NCBI GenBank assembly: GCA_964420565.1
Contig: CAYQTZ010000002.1
Location: 2,960 to 27,040, forward strand
Reading direction: 5' to 3'
DNA: 24,081 bases
Origin: an uncultured Hyphomicrobiales bacterium
Lineage (GTDB): Bacteria; Bacteroidota; Ignavibacteria; Kapaibacteriales; UBA2268
The notes below the pieces were generated by a model. That model had not been told where the DNA came from. It saw only the letters and a list, made by a program, of their open reading frames with translations, and made no database searches. Below are positions 5,897 through 22,300 of the stretch, piece by piece (the first letter of the stretch is position 1; each line of letters opens with the position of its first letter). Both the position numbers and the translations under genes were made by a program.

Positions 5897-7198
5897 TCAC
5901 TGAATAATTAGCTTCAAAGAATTACGTTTGATGCCATTTGAAATATTAACGACATACATCCCCTTTGGATAATTGGCAATATTGATCTCGATAGTATCTT
6001 CATATTGTGTTTCTAATCTATGCTGCAATATGCCATCGCTCGAGAATACTTCTACATAAAGAATTTGGGAAAATGGAATATTATGATTCAGATATGCTAC
6101 GTTATCTGTCGGATTAGGGAATATGTAACTATCATTATAATACGCAGTTTCTTTTACTGAGGAATATGGGTCCTCAATCTTAGTTACCCCAATCTCGTGG
6201 GCAACCCATACATTTCCATATTTATCAAAGTCCAGATCAGAACATTTATTGCTCAATAGTCCATCATCTTCGGTAAATTGCTTTAATTTATCATCTTTGA
6301 GAAAGAACACTCCATTACCGCAAACAAACCATAGTACGCCATTATTGTCATATTTCATTTCCTTGACTTTTTCGTATAGCAATGCAGAAAGATCAACATC
6401 CATTCTAATCCATTCGCTATCATCATAAAAATATAACTTGTGAATTCTTTCATTTGTATAATAATAATATAATACCAGATTGTTTTCATATATTGCTAAA
6501 TTTATAGTAAAGTAAAATGGATTTATATTTTTCACATCAACAGGCATATTTATATTTTCAAATTTATTTCCATCATATTTTGTTAATAAAACATTATTGG
6601 GATCTCTGAATATTTCAATGAGATAAAGATTACCCTCTTCGTCTTTTATATTGTCGAGAATAGTTTTTTCATAGCGACCAGCATCGTTTAGTGTAGAATG
6701 CTTTCTATAATCACGTATTACATTTACTATTTTGGTTTGCATATCAAACTCATATAAACGAGTATGAAAATTTGAAGCGAAGTCAGTTATATATTCGCTC
6801 TCTTTGCTGGAAAAAACAAGTTTATTATTTTTATCAAACATTAGATTTTCTTGGGTAGTAATTGATGGCTTAAGCCATTTCCATTGATCATTCTTATAAT
6901 AAAATATTAGTGATGGAGTATTAACAAATACACTTCCTTCGGGTCCACTTACAATACAATTTAAAACAAATTGGTATTCGCCTAATTCTATTCCTTCCCA
7001 TGAATGACCATCATATTTGAATAAAGCAAGATCATATTTTAATTCAAATCCATTATCTCCTCCGTACCAGATATTATTTTCCTGATCACAATGAATATAA
7101 TGGCAATTTTGCGGATATGTAAAAGTAGTGAATTTCTGTGAAATCAAAACATTTGAAAATGCAATGATCAGGATCAAGGTCAGGTTTACTATTTTCAT
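5897..7198 (-). CDS. Secreted beta-propeller protein with a C-terminal T9SS type A sorting domain
   Basis: Signal peptide; Reg_prop-like motif FTEDDGLLSNKCSDLDFDKYGNVWVA; CTD IFPNPT...GMYVVNI...KLIIQ. Confidence 0.8.
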   Translation of the reverse strand: MKIVNLTLILIIAFSNVLISQKFTTFTYPQNCHYIHCDQENNIWYGGDNGFELKYDLALFKYDGHSWEGIELGEYQFVLNCIVSGPEGSVFVNTPSLIFYYKNDQWKWLKPSITTQENLMFDKNNKLVFSSKESEYITDFASNFHTRLYEFDMQTKIVNVIRDYRKHSTLNDAGRYEKTILDNIKDEEGNLYLIEIFRDPNNVLLTKYDGNKFENINMPVDVKNINPFYFTINLAIYENNLVLYYYYTNERIHKLYFYDDSEWIRMDVDLSALLYEKVKEMKYDNNGVLWFVCGNGVFFLKDDKLKQFTEDDGLLSNKCSDLDFDKYGNVWVAHEIGVTKIEDPYSSVKETAYYNDSYIFPNPTDNVAYLNHNIPFSQILYVEVFSSDGILQHRLETQYEDTIEINIANYPKGMYVVNISNGIKRNSLKLIIQ

Positions 7199-10871: not shown

Positions 10872-12335
10872 TTATCTGAGAATACTGAGTGGGATTGTCA
10901 TCTTTTTTCTATCATAATGAATTACTGCATAGTATAATCCTGCAGGAATATTATCTGTGCTGATGTATATTTCACCGGGATTATATTCTCTTCCTTGATC
11001 GGTAATAGCATTTTTACCTAATATATCAAAAAGCTCAACTAACTTTATATCTCCACAGCTACTTTCAAAACGAAGATGATTATTGCTTTGGCTATATTCA
11101 ATACATTTTTGGTTTTCTTTAATATCCTGAACCGAAGTGGTCTGCTCCAGCGGAAATAGATATGAAAATGGCGAAACTCCCATTAGGGACTCTACTTTTG
11201 GAGCTATTTCAGGCAAGCCGTTCTCAACTATAAGATATGCCAGAACACCCTCTTTTTCAGCAAAATCACTTTTATCGGTATTAATGAATGCGATTTGAGC
11301 GCTGCTGTTATTGTCATCTGCATAGCTAACGAAAAAAGCCGCATCTCCGGTAAATATATCACCTCTTTCTAAACCCAGTACTTTGACATTTTCTGGGAAA
11401 TGATCCCATTTAATTGTTCCTGCTGCACCTGTGTATGGTTCGTTATTCCCAATATATATTGGAATGGCATGAGTGCCGGGTTTTCTATATGTTTTTTCTT
11501 CGAATATCTTAGATAGAGAGCTTTCGGATTTTTTTTCAATTTTATTAGGTAAGTGCATATTCACTACGAGTAGGTCAGATGTTGTAACGTCTCCGTTTCC
11601 ATCACAATCAGCGTAAGTAGCTGCGTTATCATCCCATGCCAGTACCTTATGAGGAGCCCAGATAGTGCTTGCAGAACGCCTTTTGAAGCTTCGCATATTC
11701 TTCGTGGCTGAGCCGTACCCCATATAGAAGTTAATAGGGATGAAATCATTTTCATCTACTTCGCCATTATTGTCAGCATCTCCAGGCCAAACGTCCACAA
11801 AGCTGTGAATATTATAGATTATTGGTTCTTTGGCAATATTGATAATTGCTCTGCCTGTATCTGTTGATATTACAGCGTATATATTTTGAAAATTGAGAGT
11901 TAGCTCTTCGTTATGCTCTACTGATTGAGAGACACCAAATTCTAAATGAATCACATTTGGATTATCGAAACCTTCGACATCAATATCATCATTGATTCCA
12001 ACACCTATGTATAAAGAACCTTTTTTGGCGAGTTTATCAATTTTGTTGTGAACTACAGCAAGAGCATTTTCACCGAAATTATCCATTGCATATTCAGAGA
12101 AATGTATATAATCTGTCAGATCATAGTCTAAACGGAAAGACACACCGCGACATTTTTCTACATCTTCGAGATAAATATCAAAACCAAAAAGGAAAGTAGC
12201 CGTTACAAAACTTGAACGAGTAGAATCCACATCAGTCCTTACAATTTTTAAGGACTGGGCGCTCAGCTCAGAAAAGCAGAGCATCAGGATCATTATTATT
12301 ATATATTTTATTTGCATTTTATAGTATTCGTTCAC
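10872..12335 (-). CDS. Secreted protein with dockerin-like Ca-binding repeats and a T9SS-like C-terminal domain
   Basis: Signal peptide; WPGDADNNGEVDENDF and ADCDGNGDVTTSDLL duplicated loops; C-terminal LFDILGK...GLYYAVI...LSILR. Confidence 0.7.
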   Translation of the reverse strand: MNEYYKMQIKYIIIMILMLCFSELSAQSLKIVRTDVDSTRSSFVTATFLFGFDIYLEDVEKCRGVSFRLDYDLTDYIHFSEYAMDNFGENALAVVHNKIDKLAKKGSLYIGVGINDDIDVEGFDNPNVIHLEFGVSQSVEHNEELTLNFQNIYAVISTDTGRAIINIAKEPIIYNIHSFVDVWPGDADNNGEVDENDFIPINFYMGYGSATKNMRSFKRRSASTIWAPHKVLAWDDNAATYADCDGNGDVTTSDLLVVNMHLPNKIEKKSESSLSKIFEEKTYRKPGTHAIPIYIGNNEPYTGAAGTIKWDHFPENVKVLGLERGDIFTGDAAFFVSYADDNNSSAQIAFINTDKSDFAEKEGVLAYLIVENGLPEIAPKVESLMGVSPFSYLFPLEQTTSVQDIKENQKCIEYSQSNNHLRFESSCGDIKLVELFDILGKNAITDQGREYNPGEIYISTDNIPAGLYYAVIHYDRKKMTIPLSILR

Positions 12336-12546: not shown

Positions 12547-13062
12547 TTATATGCTGTTAAACGTTAGAGTAATTCTTCTTTTCTTTGAATAACTGACAAC
12601 GTGGTTATAAGTCGTTCTTACAGATTTCAATGATTGTGGTTTTATGTTAGGATCACTATTCTTTTTGTATTCAATGTATTCATTGAAATGTTTTAGAAAA
12701 CTTTTTTTATCATCTTCTTTCTTATTCTTTAATTCAGGTCTTAATCTCGAGAATAAAATCTGCTTAAAACTTCCTGAGCTTTGTTCTTCCCAAATAAATC
12801 CATCAGTCTTTTGCAATATAATCTCTTTTATTGTATTCTCCATTTTTGATAGCTCAAAATTATATGCCTGAGAATACTCAGCTTTTGGTTTCAATCTTTG
12901 AGTCTTTTCATTCCGGTCCTTATGTGCAATTGAAAATCCACTTGAGAATCTGAGTCTTTTTCCTCTGTATGAGATATGCACAAGAATTGCAGAATTAGAT
13001 AGATTTGGTCTCATTAAATTGAAACCAACATTGATTATGTTCTTACTATACTTCCTTGCCAT
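12547..13062 (-). pseudogene. N-terminal half of a tyrosine integrase (Arm-DNA-binding plus SAM-like domain start); catalytic domain missing
   Basis: FNL...ILVHISYRGKRLRFSSGFSI...RNEKTQRLK arm domain; FLKHFNEYIEYK...KSVRTTYNHV...LTFNSI then stop; no R-H-R-Y domain follows. Confidence 0.8.
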
Positions 13063-14316: not shown

Positions 14317-14345
14317 TGTAACAATTTACTGATTATATTCTCTTA
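14317..14345 (+). promoter_or_regulatory. Possible ECF-type autoregulatory promoter TGTAAC-N17-CTCTTA
   Basis: GTAAC -35-like box with 17-nt spacer immediately upstream of the ECF gene; pattern match only. Confidence 0.3.
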
Positions 14346-14347
14346 CA

Positions 14348-14860
14348 TTGAAAAAGATAGAACAAAAATTAATGAAAAGTCACGAAAAATATTTCAAATT
14401 AGTGGATGAATTTTATCCTAATCTTGAGAAGTTCGCGCTGAATATGAGCAGGAACAGGGATGTCGCTAAAGATTTGGTAAGCGAAACGATTCTAAAATCT
14501 TATGATGGATTCAGAAAATTAAGATCAGAAAAGGCGTTTCTAAGTTATTTGTTCACTATTTGCTCGAGGTTGTATTATTCTCACTTAAAAAAAACGAGAA
14601 ATTTTGCTACAGAGGAACCAGATAGTTTATTCTCTAATTTCATGAGTCCAGAGGATAAAACAGATGTTTCAATCTTGCAGGAAAGTATTGACGAATTACC
14701 AGATATGCAGAGAGAGATATTGATCCTATATGAAATAATTGGATTTAAGTATAAGGAAATAGCTGATATTAAGGATATTTCCATTGATAATGTGAAAGTA
14801 ATTTTGCACAGAGCAAGAACAAATCTGAAAGAAATGCTGATAGTTTCAGATAAAAAATAA
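14348..14860 (+). CDS. ECF-type RNA polymerase sigma factor; ATG 14372 is an alternative start
   Basis: Region 2 (AKDLVSETILKSY, FLSYLFTI) and region 4 (LPDMQREILILY...YKEIA...VKVILHRARTNLK). Confidence 0.93.
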   Translation: MKKIEQKLMKSHEKYFKLVDEFYPNLEKFALNMSRNRDVAKDLVSETILKSYDGFRKLRSEKAFLSYLFTICSRLYYSHLKKTRNFATEEPDSLFSNFMSPEDKTDVSILQESIDELPDMQREILILYEIIGFKYKEIADIKDISIDNVKVILHRARTNLKEMLIVSDKK

Positions 14861-14879
14861 TCTATTAGAAAGTAGTGCC

Positions 14880-16928
14880 ATGAAAGATTTAGATAAATAT
14901 ATAGAAAAGCTTCGATCGCTCGAAAATCAGAAGCCATTGCTGAACAGCGAGGAAATCCGGAACCTTGCCAACAGCTCAAGTAATATTTATTTCAAAAAAC
15001 AAAGGAATAATATCATGAAAATCTTAACATTGACTGCAACTGTTTCAATACTTACTTTTTTTGCACTTTTTTCCGGGCTTGATTTTGATGCAAATACTGA
15101 CTACTCAAAGAGTATGGAAAAATCAGTAACAGAGAGTCATAATGCAGCACAAGAAAGCAATTCAAACTTACTTATTGATAATCAAGATGTTAAGGATAGT
15201 ACTTACTCAATTGGCTCTGATATCACTGAAACCAAGAAATCAAATATTGAAAAACATCTAAATGTAAGGCATCTCTCAAATGAAGATTTCAAAGCATTTG
15301 GTGTAGAAATTATGGAAGATAATATTTCACTAAAATATAAAAGATTTTATGGTGAAGAAAGTATCTCAGAAAAATGTATCGTTAGTATCTTGCCTGATAG
15401 CAGTAACTTAAAGATCAATATCACCAATAATATAATCGCTAATGACACGGCTATCAAAGAAATTAATCCCCATTATCCTGTGGCATTTTATGGTGTATTG
15501 AAAGATAAAAAAGGTAAGGTAATAGATAGTAAATATTTTAGAACTGGGAAAAATGCTCTTATCGAAGACGATTCTTATGTTGAATTCCATGAGGAAGTTC
15601 AAAAGTTTATTGAATATCTGAAAGAAACTGGTCAGGATATATCGGAAAAATTATATATATCTTACGATAAAGATGATTTTCCTTTAGTATATCAAAGCAT
15701 CTTCTTTCCCTATGATTTATCAATTGACGACAAGTATTCTTTATCGGGTTATATCATATATCCAGCGAATCCAGGGATGCATTACAAACTTCAGCAGTAT
15801 CAAACATTAGAACAAATGCAGGGCACTCATTGGCATTATATGATCAGCAGAACTTCACATCGGATTCAAGATGGTTCAAAGGCATTGGAAGCAAAACGAT
15901 TTGATATTGCTGCAATTGAATATTTGGAACTAACCGATAAAGAACTTGAAAATATTGGTATATTCAAAATGGATTCGGTTTATAAATTTACTAATAAAAA
16001 TTATTATGATCTTAATAACATCTGGGAGAGAGTTCATAAGGATTATATTAGGAAAGATTCATTAGGGAATTATATTGGTTATGCGCCTTATGCTAAAAAA
16101 GATTATGATTTCTCTAAAACTATATTTGAATTAGGATATGACACTTTACAAAGAAAGGGATATTACTATCAAGATTTTGTTTTAGATTCTCACCATATTC
16201 TTCCACATTCAATAATTTCTTATGATGCAGATATTAATTTCAACGAATCATTCAATCCTGTAGCATTTTATCAAATTTGGAACCAACATTATACAGGAGA
16301 TATATTGAAAAAATTATTAACCCTCAGATTTATTAGTAATGAAGTACTTGACGAAGATAATATATACCATAAAGATTTAAGCAGGGATAATATTTCAACA
16401 TATCAATTAATTGTACCTGTCAGAATAAGTTTTTCGCCGGAGAATACTAATAAATTGTGCAGATGGTCCGATTACGAAATATATTATCCATTAAGCAGTG
16501 AATTCATTTCAAAACTGCCGGATAGATACAGAATCCCCTTGGAAAAAGAATATGAACTCATTCAAAAAGTCTTCCGTGGAGAGATTTCTTATCTCGAAGC
16601 ATGCAAGGGGCTTAATAATGAAAGATCTATGTTAGGAATATGCCGCTCGGAAACAGAAAACTTACAGATAATAAATCTATATCCCAATCCCATACTAAAT
16701 CATGAAACAACCATTGAATTTATATTGACAAAAGATAGTGATTTAAGAATTGATATGCACGATTTAAATGGTTCTTATCTCTCATCATTAATGGAATCAA
16801 CTAAGCTAAGCGAGGGAATACATAAGTTCAGCATTAATATCCCGGATGATACAAAAGAAGGACTATACTTCATTACACTATCAATAGATCATGGGGATCA
16901 GGTAGTGCAGAAGATACTTGTGAAATGA
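14880..16928 (+). CDS. Putative anti-sigma-like membrane-anchored protein with C-terminal T9SS type A domain
   Basis: 19 bp after the ECF gene; about 45-aa charged N-terminus, TM helix at aa ~48-66, CTD LYPNP...DLNG...GLYFI...QKILVK. Confidence 0.7.
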   Translation: MKDLDKYIEKLRSLENQKPLLNSEEIRNLANSSSNIYFKKQRNNIMKILTLTATVSILTFFALFSGLDFDANTDYSKSMEKSVTESHNAAQESNSNLLIDNQDVKDSTYSIGSDITETKKSNIEKHLNVRHLSNEDFKAFGVEIMEDNISLKYKRFYGEESISEKCIVSILPDSSNLKINITNNIIANDTAIKEINPHYPVAFYGVLKDKKGKVIDSKYFRTGKNALIEDDSYVEFHEEVQKFIEYLKETGQDISEKLYISYDKDDFPLVYQSIFFPYDLSIDDKYSLSGYIIYPANPGMHYKLQQYQTLEQMQGTHWHYMISRTSHRIQDGSKALEAKRFDIAAIEYLELTDKELENIGIFKMDSVYKFTNKNYYDLNNIWERVHKDYIRKDSLGNYIGYAPYAKKDYDFSKTIFELGYDTLQRKGYYYQDFVLDSHHILPHSIISYDADINFNESFNPVAFYQIWNQHYTGDILKKLLTLRFISNEVLDEDNIYHKDLSRDNISTYQLIVPVRISFSPENTNKLCRWSDYEIYYPLSSEFISKLPDRYRIPLEKEYELIQKVFRGEISYLEACKGLNNERSMLGICRSETENLQIINLYPNPILNHETTIEFILTKDSDLRIDMHDLNGSYLSSLMESTKLSEGIHKFSINIPDDTKEGLYFITLSIDHGDQVVQKILVK

Positions 16929-17457: not shown

Positions 17458-17670
17458 TTATAGCAATTCCATAAATTTTTCGATAGACAGTCCAGATGAT
17501 TTTCCAATACCACCCATAGTATAAGAATTTATGGGGTTATTCCTTGGAATTGTTAAAATTATATCGCCATTTGTCATTATTATGTGTTTGCTTTGCCGAA
17601 GAATCCAAAAACCAGCTTTTTCAAAAGCTCTAACTGCATTAAGATGATTTATACCAGAAATTTTTGGCAA
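17458..17670 (-). CDS. hicA: HicA family toxin (mRNA interferase)
   Basis: 70 aa; AVRAFEKAGFWILRQSKHIIM (conserved His), TIPRNNPI...TMGGI; TTG start abuts the antitoxin stop. Confidence 0.8.
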   Translation of the reverse strand: MPKISGINHLNAVRAFEKAGFWILRQSKHIIMTNGDIILTIPRNNPINSYTMGGIGKSSGLSIEKFMELL

Positions 17671-17862
17671 CTATACCTCTATCTGAAGGGATTTTTCTCT
17701 CAAACTAAGCTCTTTTTTTGCTTCAAGATACTCAATAATAGCAATTTTGATATTTTCTATTGCTTCTTCCTCGGAATCTCCCTGAGAAAAACATCCAGGC
17801 AAATCCTCGCACCAGACAGCATAACCTTCATCACTATTAAGTATTTTTATATTATAATTCAT
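17671..17862 (-). CDS. hicB: HicB family antitoxin (short form, no DNA-binding domain)
   Basis: EGYAVWCEDLPGCFSQGDSEEEAIENIKIAI; GAGG SD before ATG 17862. Confidence 0.88.
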   Translation of the reverse strand: MNYNIKILNSDEGYAVWCEDLPGCFSQGDSEEEAIENIKIAIIEYLEAKKELSLREKSLQIEV

Positions 17863-17943
17863 AGACGACCTCATTTTCTTTTTAAACGATTATTATTTAT
17901 CAATATTATAATTTAATAAGAATCATAGTAATTAGAAATTAGA

Positions 17944-18049: not shown

Positions 18050-18433
18050 TTATAGTCTATGAAGTTCATTAATACAATCGAATTCCTTATCTAAGGAGTA
18101 GAATGTTATTGAATTTCGAATACATAGTTCTGCAATTAAAACATCCGAAGGTGTTAAAGTTATTCCTTCTTTTCTTAAATCTCTTATTCTGCTACCAGCA
18201 TTAATAAAATCTCTTCTTTCAAAATCAAAGTATTTTAATATTGAAAACAACTGTTCAACTTCTTCTTTTTGTCTTTTGCTTTTTATGCCCTGAATTATTT
18301 CAAGTTCGATTATCCCGCAAATACAAGCAGAATCATTTTCAATCAGTAATTGTACTTTGTCTGCTACATCTTTATCAGAGTTCCTAAAGAATTTGATCCA
18401 GCAAGAGGAATCAATCATTATCAAATTTGCCAT
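18050..18433 (-). CDS. vapC: PIN-domain VapC toxin (start possibly ATG 18418)
   Basis: IMIDSSCWI, IELEIIQG, SDVLIA, SLDKEF acidic PIN motifs. Confidence 0.92.
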   Translation of the reverse strand: MANLIMIDSSCWIKFFRNSDKDVADKVQLLIENDSACICGIIELEIIQGIKSKRQKEEVEQLFSILKYFDFERRDFINAGSRIRDLRKEGITLTPSDVLIAELCIRNSITFYSLDKEFDCINELHRL

Positions 18434-18641
18434 TGGCTATCTCTTCCAGCTCTTTATGCTTTAGAATATCAATATTATCATCTATGTCAACATTGCCTCG
18501 GAGTGCAATCAGCTTCTGCTTTTTGAAAAGTATCATAAGATCTTTTAATGCTCTGTTGACCGCTTCAGTTTTAGTCTTCGACTTATAATGAGCGAATATC
18601 TCATTAATGATTTCGTCATCAATATTTATAGTCGTTCGCAT
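18411..18641 (-). CDS. vapB: VapB-family antitoxin
   Basis: MRTTINIDDE...TKTEAVNRAL RHH-type pattern; overlaps the vapC start; GAGG SD. Confidence 0.88.
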   Translation of the reverse strand: MRTTINIDDEIINEIFAHYKSKTKTEAVNRALKDLMILFKKQKLIALRGNVDIDDNIDILKHKELEEIANGKFDND

Positions 18642-20514: not shown

Positions 20515-20889
20515 CTATCCTTCCAAAACATTAAAAGAGAACTTAATATCTTCGGCAAATTCTTCACCACTTTCTTTAATGTCTTCATCATCTTTTTCGT
20601 AGTACCAATTGACCTTTGGTTCTTTGCCCTGCTCGTGGAATACTTCCAAAATATCGAGAATATCTAAGATAGCTTTAGATGAGCTAGTATTAAAATATAT
20701 GAATTTGAAGCTAATAGTTAAGTTGACATTACTTTTCTCACCATATTCTGTAATCAACTGAATAATCTGATTATAGAATTCAGAGGCGCTTTCAGGATAA
20801 GACTGTCCTTCGATAAAAAGCTCTCCTTTTTCTGCAACGAATTTAATTTCTGGAGTATCCTTAGCTGCTTCGATGAATAGATCTTGCAT
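20515..20889 (-). CDS. siaC: SiaC family regulatory phosphoprotein (DUF1987)
   Basis: DTPEIKF...IEGQSYPE...FYNQI...YFNTSSSKAIL...VNWYYEKDDEDIKESGEEF. Confidence 0.9.
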   Translation of the reverse strand: MQDLFIEAAKDTPEIKFVAEKGELFIEGQSYPESASEFYNQIIQLITEYGEKSNVNLTISFKFIYFNTSSSKAILDILDILEVFHEQGKEPKVNWYYEKDDEDIKESGEEFAEDIKFSFNVLEG

Positions 20890-20890
20890 A

Positions 20891-21433
20891 CTATGTTTCC
20901 TTTTTTACTTTTACATTAATTTTTAAGAATGAGCAATCATCATCTATAGGTAATATCTCGTAATCAATTATGCTCTTTGATTTGCGAACAATATCTATCA
21001 ATCCGAGTCCTGCGCCCTTACTGTCTGACTCTTTCACATCGCGTAAACGTTTTTTATAGAATTTCTTTAGCTCAGGTTCTTTCATGCTATTGATATTATT
21101 CAAATGGTCTGTCAGTTTATTGACTTTAGTATTTTCAATCTTATTGCCAGAGAAAATATTAAACCATTTTTCATCTTCTGAGAAAAGTATTATTCCAACG
21201 CCAATTTCTTTGCCTTTTATTCTTTCTTTTTCTGCAGAATAATGCATTATATTCTGTGCTAATTCAACGAAAACAGAGAATATCGTTTTTATAAGCTTGC
21301 CTGCCGATACTTTTTTAACAATAACATCGCCAATTCTGACCAGCAGGTCCTGAGACAAAGCACCATTGAATTCAAGAAGCACATTATCGCTTTTTGTATT
21401 AAAGTAATGTTTTAAAAAATCTACTTCAGCCAT
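20891..21433 (-). CDS. siaB: SiaB family protein kinase (DUF6272); likely start MAEVDF
   Basis: FSVFVELAQNIMHYS, FSGNKI, KGAGLGLIDIVRKS HATPase-like motifs; 1 bp from siaC. Confidence 0.88.
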   Translation of the reverse strand: MAEVDFLKHYFNTKSDNVLLEFNGALSQDLLVRIGDVIVKKVSAGKLIKTIFSVFVELAQNIMHYSAEKERIKGKEIGVGIILFSEDEKWFNIFSGNKIENTKVNKLTDHLNNINSMKEPELKKFYKKRLRDVKESDSKGAGLGLIDIVRKSKSIIDYEILPIDDDCSFLKINVKVKKET

Positions 21434-22300
21434 AGTACACTTTCCTTTTTTGTCAATATATTCATTTATTTTAACAAAAACAATGCCAATCAATATTTAT
21501 TGCAAATACTTATTAATGTCAGCTGCATAAGAAAAGTTCATATTATAAAATATCCTTAGCCCTTATATTTATTACCCTCAATAGATATGTCGAAAACCCG
21601 AGTATCATGAATATTTCTTATTATATAAAGGATCAATAGAAAATATTCGATAATTAATTAGTTATTAAAAAAAAGAAATGTGAGAAAAACAAGAAATATT
21701 TCATATATTAGAAATTAATATTTATTGCATTTATGAAAAGAAGAAGAAAAAACTTACACTTTAATACTATTCATGGAAATATTTGGGTAAGGATGTCTGC
21801 AAAAATGAATATGAAAAAAGATCATTTCTGAAAATGATAACTTTCCGTTGATTTGCATAACATATATATTACTAATTCAATCCAGCAAGCATCTTATATA
21901 GACGATAAATGAAAAACGATGCTGAACAATAATTCGCAATGTGATTTTATTGATTATTGAAAATCCCATCTACTAAATTAATGTGCTCTGGCAGCAAAAT
22001 ATAGATAACCAATATAGAAAAAAACCGATGAGCAAAGCCTTCCAAGAAGATGTATTTCTGGCAAGTTACTTTATAAGAGAAACAAGCATTATCAAAATAC
22101 TATCAGGTAAAAATTTCATAGGAATAGAATTACGATCTGTATTTGTAGTAGAGATATTAACTATAATAAGCGATAGCAAAGACGGCTGATCAGAAAAATC
22201 AATTTCGCAGAAAATTAAATAAATTCTAAAGCCGATATAATAATTGTAAAAGAAAAAGTGGAATATATGAACCAATTGATAGAAATAAATCAAAAAAAAA

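Follow-up and report, generated by a model that had tools for sequence, protein, structure and literature searches.

The window analyzed here is a stretch of 24,081 nucleotides from an uncultured bacterium (assembly GCA_964420565.1, contig CAYQTZ010000002.1, positions 2,960 to 27,040 of the forward strand), and the subject of this work is a pair of its genes, coding for a sigma factor of the extracytoplasmic function (ECF) group and for a partner protein that ends in a type A C-terminal sorting domain (CTD) for the secretion system of type IX (T9SS). We consider it moderately probable that the pair is an autoregulated module in which the partner gene encodes two products, an anchored inhibitor of the sigma factor and a shorter form. 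This interpretation is built on comparative sequence data, which indicate that the pair is part of a large unnamed family, that the 45–55 N-terminal residues of the partner are translated and under purifying selection, and that an internal Shine–Dalgarno (SD) sequence with its in-frame ATG is under selection too. An earlier note, written from the letters of the window, had pointed to the ECF gene and, in the gene after it, to a charged N-terminus, a hydrophobic helix, a T9SS CTD and an ATG at 15015 preceded by AGGA at 15003-15006; all of these were found again at those positions. The elements of the pair are the following, with protein positions counted in amino acids (aa) of the long form and with structural features taken in part from an AlphaFold2 (AF2) model and its predicted local distance difference test (pLDDT) scores:

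14317-14346, + strand: ECF-type promoter, with -35 element TGTAACA at 14317-14323 and -10-like element CTCTTAC at 14340-14346
14348-14860, + strand: open reading frame (ORF) of the ECF sigma factor, 170 aa from TTG 14348; probable start ATG 14372, giving 162 aa beginning MKSHEKYF
14880-16928, + strand: gene of the anti-sigma-like T9SS-CTD protein, long form of 682 aa, delimited by the ORF, the family profile and synteny with the sigma gene
14880-15014, + strand: cytoplasmic N-terminal segment, aa 1-45, two short predicted helices; candidate sigma-binding part
15003-15006, + strand: internal SD-like AGGA, separated from the ATG by 8 nt
15015-15017, + strand: internal in-frame ATG, codon 46 (Met46), conserved in homologues; candidate second start
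15015-15077, + strand: hydrophobic helix, aa 46-66, from a hydropathy scan (AF2 helix at 43-64); putative anchor of the long form and signal peptide or anchor of the short one
15078-15242, + strand: low-complexity linker, aa 67-121, predicted disordered (pLDDT <50), varying in length and sequence among homologues
15243-15794, + strand: beta-rich domain, copy 1, aa 122-305, from AF2 strands (pLDDT mostly 62-92); no Pfam match
15897-16514, + strand: beta-rich domain, copy 2, aa 340-545, from alignments and AF2, ending in W(F/Y)xxxxEFxxxLP(D/E)RY
16515-16655, + strand: helical hairpin with C575 and C588, AF2 helices 548-565 and 571-576
16656-16925, + strand: T9SS type A CTD, aa 593-682, from TIGR04183, PF18962 and structure superposition

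The product of the first gene matches Sigma70_r2 (PF04542, 37.8 bits) and r4_2 (PF08281, 47 bits), both above the Pfam cut-offs, as well as TIGR02937, with 78.8 bits against a cut-off of 42.9, and its fold matches the structures of SigH, RpoE, SigW and CnrH. It contains the sigma-2 and sigma-4 domains only, and its 162–170 aa fall in the range of the ECF class (group 4), which is about 160–200 aa; at the sequence level, the apparent cognate partner gene kept downstream and the self-type promoter motif upstream agree with membership of this group. Assignment to the GFO_1088/PG0214 family was rejected: its model, NF058625, was the best-scoring specific one in NCBIfam, but the score of 94.3 bits is below the cut-off of 130 bits. 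The gene probably starts at ATG 14372 rather than at TTG 14348, the start of the longest ORF, since the promoter abuts the TTG, leaving no room there, and since the N-termini of homologues and the spacing to the promoter fit the ATG.

The autoregulated character of the module is suggested by the promoter. Most of 30 homologous loci have, 5′ of the sigma gene, a two-block motif, TG(T/C)AAC(C)TTTT followed after about 16 nt by (G)CAC(T)TAC(C), usually 52–68 nt ahead of the sigma start. When a simple form of this pattern was run over the genome to which the window belongs (81% complete), it matched only at the present operon, barring likely chance hits in coding regions. Such a result agrees with a module directed mainly at its own expression. 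A scan for sigma-70 promoters and terminators gave results at chance level.

Concerning the second gene, a word-indexed search for homologues of the partner protein matched nothing but the protein itself, and a profile search was required. A family profile built on 15 members, run against 1.84 billion proteins, collected at least 360 clusters (50% identity representatives) at E ≤ 1e-30. Homologous loci, gathered with a degenerate nucleotide pattern coding for the W(F/Y)..EF..LP(D/E)RY motif, came almost all from metagenome-assembled genomes of Candidatus Kapaibacterium, Kapabacteria, Ignavibacteria or Chlorobiota. Of the 100 genomes searched in the window's taxonomic family, 63 have matches, often several each, and in a sample of 300 genomes of the phylum the strong ones were confined to the window's own order. 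The two genes go together: an ECF sigma gene lies directly 5′ of the partner in 51 of the 65 members whose N-terminus falls inside a fetched locus, most of the remaining loci being cut too close to the gene. The ATG of the partner overlaps the stop codon of the sigma gene (ATGA) in 19 of 39 loci, which is the usual sign of translational coupling. There are three sigma/partner pairs in the genome of the window, and the three closest paralogues of the window's sigma factor each adjoin a family member. No conserved third gene was found downstream of the pair among the collected loci.

Some relatives show variants of this arrangement. In a subfamily of shorter members (about 485–590 aa; loci L017, L024, L025, L037, L062 and L074), the pair is followed by a conserved gene for a secreted protein (MKKLLFILL...FAQ), which does not accompany the two-repeat members. 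Tandem arrays of sigma/partner pairs were also seen, with two pairs back to back in locus L032 (1608-7871) and further arrays in L045 and L069, and four family matches lie within 15 kb in another genome (G100:C5:381540-396753).

The N-terminal segment of the partner decides between an anti-sigma protein and a plain secreted T9SS protein made from Met46, in which the 45 upstream codons would be spurious and the sigma factor would merely drive expression. The latter would agree with the public gene call of the present protein, which has 637 aa and begins at Met46, as do those of a few other members, and with the fact that the internal start has the better SD sequence in the window. Against it, the N-terminal frame is open in about 60 homologues examined, within a narrow range of lengths, from an ATG placed 44–58 codons (up to 65) 5′ of the membrane helix, and carries the conserved motif MKxLDKY..(A/L)(K/R)...P(L/F)...EE(I/L)R. 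The ratio of nonsynonymous to synonymous substitution rates (dN/dS) of this segment alone is 0.17–0.71 in 18 pairs of moderately diverged members. Open frame, dN/dS below 1, conserved motif and the overlap of the ATG with the sigma stop codon together argue that the segment is translated, and 123 of the 150 best representatives are called with it. The earlier note had considered that homologues might start only at Met46; the conservation of the segment contradicts this, and a plain secreted protein is thus very improbable. It follows that gene callers starting at the internal ATG hide the candidate sigma-binding part.

That this segment binds the sigma factor is what we infer from its position, the membrane topology, the coupling and the co-duplication of both genes. 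The segment resembles in size the class II (CnrY/NepR-like) anti-sigma domains, cytosolic pairs of helices in about 50 aa or less which bind sigma-2 and sigma-4, and its two predicted helices fit this class too, with no sequence similarity to it. A class I domain (zinc-binding or RseA-type) was rejected, such domains having four helices in about 80–90 aa versus two helices in 45 aa here; moreover, residues 1-45 have no Cys/His motif (class I often has HxxxCxxC) and no zf-HC2 or RskA match. By language-model features, the nearest clusters are Bacteroidota proteins of about 70 aa, among which one bears the name 'putative anti-sigma factor domain protein', and the nearest Pfam-bearing clusters carry anti-sigma families, both results being leads rather than proof. 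In a fusion model of the sigma factor and the segment, the arrangement of sigma-2 and sigma-4 was nearer to that of anti-sigma-bound structures than to polymerase-bound ones (root-mean-square deviation about 12 versus about 17), a vague difference that was not counted as evidence.

The evidence for the second start comes from the codons around Met46. At the boundary between cytoplasm and membrane, the codon is ATG in 46 of 54 aligned homologues, and in 6 more the ATG is one codon earlier (52 of 54 in all); in an alignment of 81 sequences, Met46 stands alone among the first 300 residues in being listed with a conservation of 90% or more. An SD-like motif, taken as AGGA, GGAG or GAGG at positions -17 to -5, precedes the internal ATG in 31 of 50 non-identical homologues. 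When synonymous codons were resampled according to the codon usage of each gene, the expectation was 12.0, so that the excess is 2.6-fold, and none of 20,000 simulations reached 31. When the homologues were reduced to a single one for each 40%-identity cluster, the motif was present in 23 of 37 (8.4 expected), and the longer AGGAG or GGAGG in 13 (2.8 expected). For comparison, the SD-like motif was found at 8% of the other in-frame ATGs of the same genes and at the first start in 24 of 48. The mean energy of the duplex with the anti-SD sequence was -6.0 kcal/mol versus a synonymous expectation of -3.8 kcal/mol (Wilcoxon p = 1.6e-7), and -1.85 kcal/mol at other ATGs. Both the energy and the spacing agree with those of real starts in the genome, the first letter of GGA being at -12 or -11 in 28 of 40 occurrences. 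GGAG is spelled through different residues, namely K-G-A (AAA GGA GCA), R-R (AGG AGA), K-R-R, W-R, G-G and T-G-A, which argues for selection on the nucleotides.

Typical Bacteroidia make little use of SD sites. The genome of the window makes moderate use of them, with an SD-like motif at 27% of the likely starts versus 6% of internal ATGs and with G peaking at -10 to -8, so the argument from the SD sequence is meaningful here.

The same codons could be explained with one product, a full-length anti-sigma protein in which Met and the GGAG-like codons either belong to a motif of the protein sequence beside the membrane, (K/R)-G/R-x-(I/L)-x-M-(T/S), or cause a translational pause before the membrane helix. 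The motif lies where positive-inside residues are expected, and the amino-acid context by itself gives 24% of SD-like sequences. However, the codon choice exceeds the synonymous expectation as stated, different residues spell GGAG at the same distance, a pause would leave unexplained an invariant ATG at SD spacing, and gene callers choose the internal start for some members, the present one included. On these grounds, one product seems unlikely, although it draws support from part of the observations that follow.

Several observations weigh against the module with two products. The more distant members, mostly with one repeat, often lack the Met, so the feature is not universal (a point shared with the one-product alternative), and the SD of the present gene is a weak AGGA. 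The public sequencing runs containing the locus are DNA metagenomes, and no RNA run was found among them. As for binding of the sigma factor, no anti-sigma model of Pfam or NCBIfam matched residues 1-45, and in the fusion model the segment reached a pLDDT of only 70–78 and gave no usable contact information. As for secretion of the short form, most other CTD proteins of the genome with a recognisable start have an n-region bearing K/R, often of the MKK type, and about half of them have an A|Q or S|Q cleavage motif; the short form runs from M-(T/S/K/I/G) straight into the hydrophobic helix, with K/R next to the Met in about one sixth of the members, and the family helix has no A|Q. Such a poor n-region would also be expected if there were one product. 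Acidic residues after the helix still favour insertion with the N-terminus inside and the C-terminus outside. These features do not account for a release of the short form from the inner membrane, and this form may be either cleaved and secreted or anchored as an inhibitor-less copy. So, the earlier note's proposal of two isoforms from one gene keeps the comparative support of the conserved N-terminus, ATG and SD, while its idea of a secreted short isoform finds no backing for release in the signal features, with the K/R n-region mostly absent and the A|Q motif absent.

The sorting domain of the partner is genuine. TIGR04183 (Por_Secre_tail) scores 29 bits over residues 600-682, its cut-off being 23, PF18962 matches 14 of 15 homologues, and residues P602, P604, G661 and Y663 of the CTD are conserved. 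The modelled domain superposes on solved T9SS CTDs, those of PorU (6za2, Z 9.6) and mirolase (8qb1, Z 9.3, 26% identity), and on the CTD of NucA in the translocon (8glk_D, Z 8.7). With regard to the machinery, the translocon protein SprA (TIGR04189) is encoded in the same genome with 357.9 bits, above the cut-off, and the CTD portion of the family profile matches about 30 further ORFs; there was no match to GldM and a weak one to GldK in this incomplete genome. The window itself contains a second gene of T9SS cargo (5897-7198, - strand), whose product of 433 aa has a propeller repeat of the two-component-regulator kind besides Por_Secre_tail (E 2.9e-9).

Between the membrane and the sorting domain, the partner consists of unannotated domains: the 682-aa ORF has no Pfam match anywhere, and fold searches with the full-length model were dominated by the CTD and returned nothing informative for the two beta-rich domains. 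The AF2 model, computed on the 81-sequence alignment (17–26% identical) with a mean pLDDT of 76.5, predicts, from the N-terminus on, two helices (2-13 and 23-31), the membrane helix (43-64), disorder at 67-121, two beta-rich domains, a hairpin and a beta-sandwich at 595-681. The 21-residue hydrophobic stretch after Met46 is MKILTLTATVSILTFFALFSG. Both beta-rich domains are copies of each other (24% identity, E 1e-6 in a paralogue), and each of them ends in the W(F/Y)xxxxEFxxxLP(D/E)RY motif given above for copy 2. The two cysteines of the hairpin, C575 and C588, are invariant across the 81 sequences.

The favoured scheme, an autoregulated module with two partner products, can be described as follows. 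The long form would be translated from ATG 14880, in the family usually by coupling to the sigma gene, and would be a single-pass inner-membrane protein whose two-helix N-terminus keeps the sigma factor cytoplasmic in the manner of a short anti-sigma domain, the disordered linker, the two beta-rich domains and the sorting domain being outside the membrane. The short form would be translated from the internal SD and ATG (15003-15017), beginning exactly at the hydrophobic helix. Without the segment for sigma binding, it would serve either as the bulk of the T9SS cargo or as a membrane copy free of the inhibitor. The long form would be cut at or just outside the membrane helix, as signal peptidase does with RsiV and RsiP, its outer part would leave through the T9SS, a site-2 protease would clear the stub, and the freed sigma factor would induce the operon again. 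Of this scheme, we infer the binding of the sigma factor, the cleavage and the signal, and also that the two proteins are made and what becomes of them. It may further be, though this is doubtful, that the tethered copy of the cargo reports the fate of the cargo, each event of processing or pulling by the secretion route freeing one sigma factor. If true, the cell would tune cargo production to the working of the T9SS, with a two-proteoform feedback device of a kind not described for any secretion system.

Parts of this scheme have precedents. In Bacillus, the site-1 cut of the anti-sigma factors of the RsiV/SigV and RsiP/SigP pairs is made by signal peptidase (PMC4183432, PMC6066255, PMC8844934). 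These are also single-pass anti-sigma proteins with a helix doubling as a latent signal peptide, and they set a precedent for release of the outer part followed by intramembrane proteolysis. They differ in being Gram-positive systems gated by a ligand, lysozyme or beta-lactams, without a secretion-system tag or a second start, and in that cleavage is established for them, whereas in the present family it is proposed by analogy. In Porphyromonas gingivalis, a CTD-bearing T9SS cargo feeds back on an ECF sigma factor through the PorA-PorXY-SigP route (PMC7712824); PorA, however, is a separate secreted protein acting via a two-component system, and is neither an anti-sigma factor nor encoded beside the sigma gene. 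In-frame internal starts yielding N-terminally truncated proteoforms were mapped in Escherichia coli with retapamulin (10.1101/520783), and there too an SD sequence and an in-frame start inside a gene give a shorter protein without the N-terminal domain, but the present case is made by comparison of genes alone.

In full-text literature searches that combined anti-sigma factors and T9SS sorting domains, the present design did not come up, and a search on internal translation starts in anti-sigma genes found nothing. We know of no example of a second start placed exactly at the membrane helix of an anti-sigma factor.

The closest known concept is the Dma family. Dma proteins span both membranes by means of a C-terminal beta-barrel, and C-terminal fragments were seen for Dma1 (PMC10927553). 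There too, an ECF sigma gene is followed by the gene of a partner whose short cytoplasmic N-terminus leads into a single helix in the inner membrane, then into a long linker, disordered and periplasmic, and at last into a C-terminal module destined for the outer membrane, and the phylum is Bacteroidota as well. Yet, Dma ends in an eight-stranded outer-membrane beta-barrel, presumably inserted rather than secreted, whereas the present family has a T9SS CTD at its end, with folded domains of about 470 aa in front of it; sequence similarity to Dma was not detected, and the sections of its description consulted report no internal start. Membership of the Dma family was rejected, since the C-terminus is a beta-sandwich CTD, with no beta-barrel in the model and no OMP_b-brl_2 match in Pfam.

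The comparison with Dma raises another explanation, in which the intact long form would be a tethered sensor of both membranes, its CTD bringing the sensor domains, by way of the T9SS, up to the outer membrane or across it, and its linker spanning the periplasm. Through such a tether, which is compatible with two starts, the sigma factor would be linked directly to a signal at the surface or to the condition of the T9SS. The 55-residue disordered linker after the helix, variable in length among homologues, agrees with it, Dma1 shows that anti-sigma factors of Bacteroidota can span both membranes (PMC10927553), and the several diverged pairs per genome suggest distinct signals. On the other hand, T9SS cargo crosses the outer membrane whole, so that a chain with its anchor still in the inner membrane would need to remain threaded through the translocon, and the model has no outer-membrane beta-barrel. 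It seems reasonable to regard this tether as rather improbable, somewhat more so than the single product discussed above.

Concerning the surroundings of the pair, the sigma module lies in a stretch of low G+C (about 30%) with island-like content. An integrase remnant (171 aa, with the Arm-DNA-binding and SAM-like N-terminus only), hicAB and vapBC were found around it, at 12547-13062, 17458-17874 and 18050-18641 of the - strand. A 487-aa ORF (10872-12335, - strand) has as its sole match a weak dockerin type I, with 22.6 bits against a cut-off of 22.9, which would be unusual for the lineage. At 20515-21493 (- strand), a gene for a SiaC-family phosphoprotein adjoins a DUF6272 gene, an arrangement that resembles a partner-switch pair of the SiaB/SiaC type.

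Pairs of ECF sigma and anti-sigma factors are the main bacterial route from envelope signals to transcription, and the way in which the production of T9SS cargo is matched to its secretion is poorly understood outside Porphyromonas. The family described here, as read from its sequences, offers a compact design in which the anti-sigma factor would itself be a T9SS substrate, and in which a conserved second start would give a copy without the inhibitor. If both proteins exist, this would be a new use for internal translation starts in bacteria and, besides the beta-barrel of Dma, a second route linking the cell surface to a cytoplasmic sigma factor in bacteria of the Bacteroidota type.

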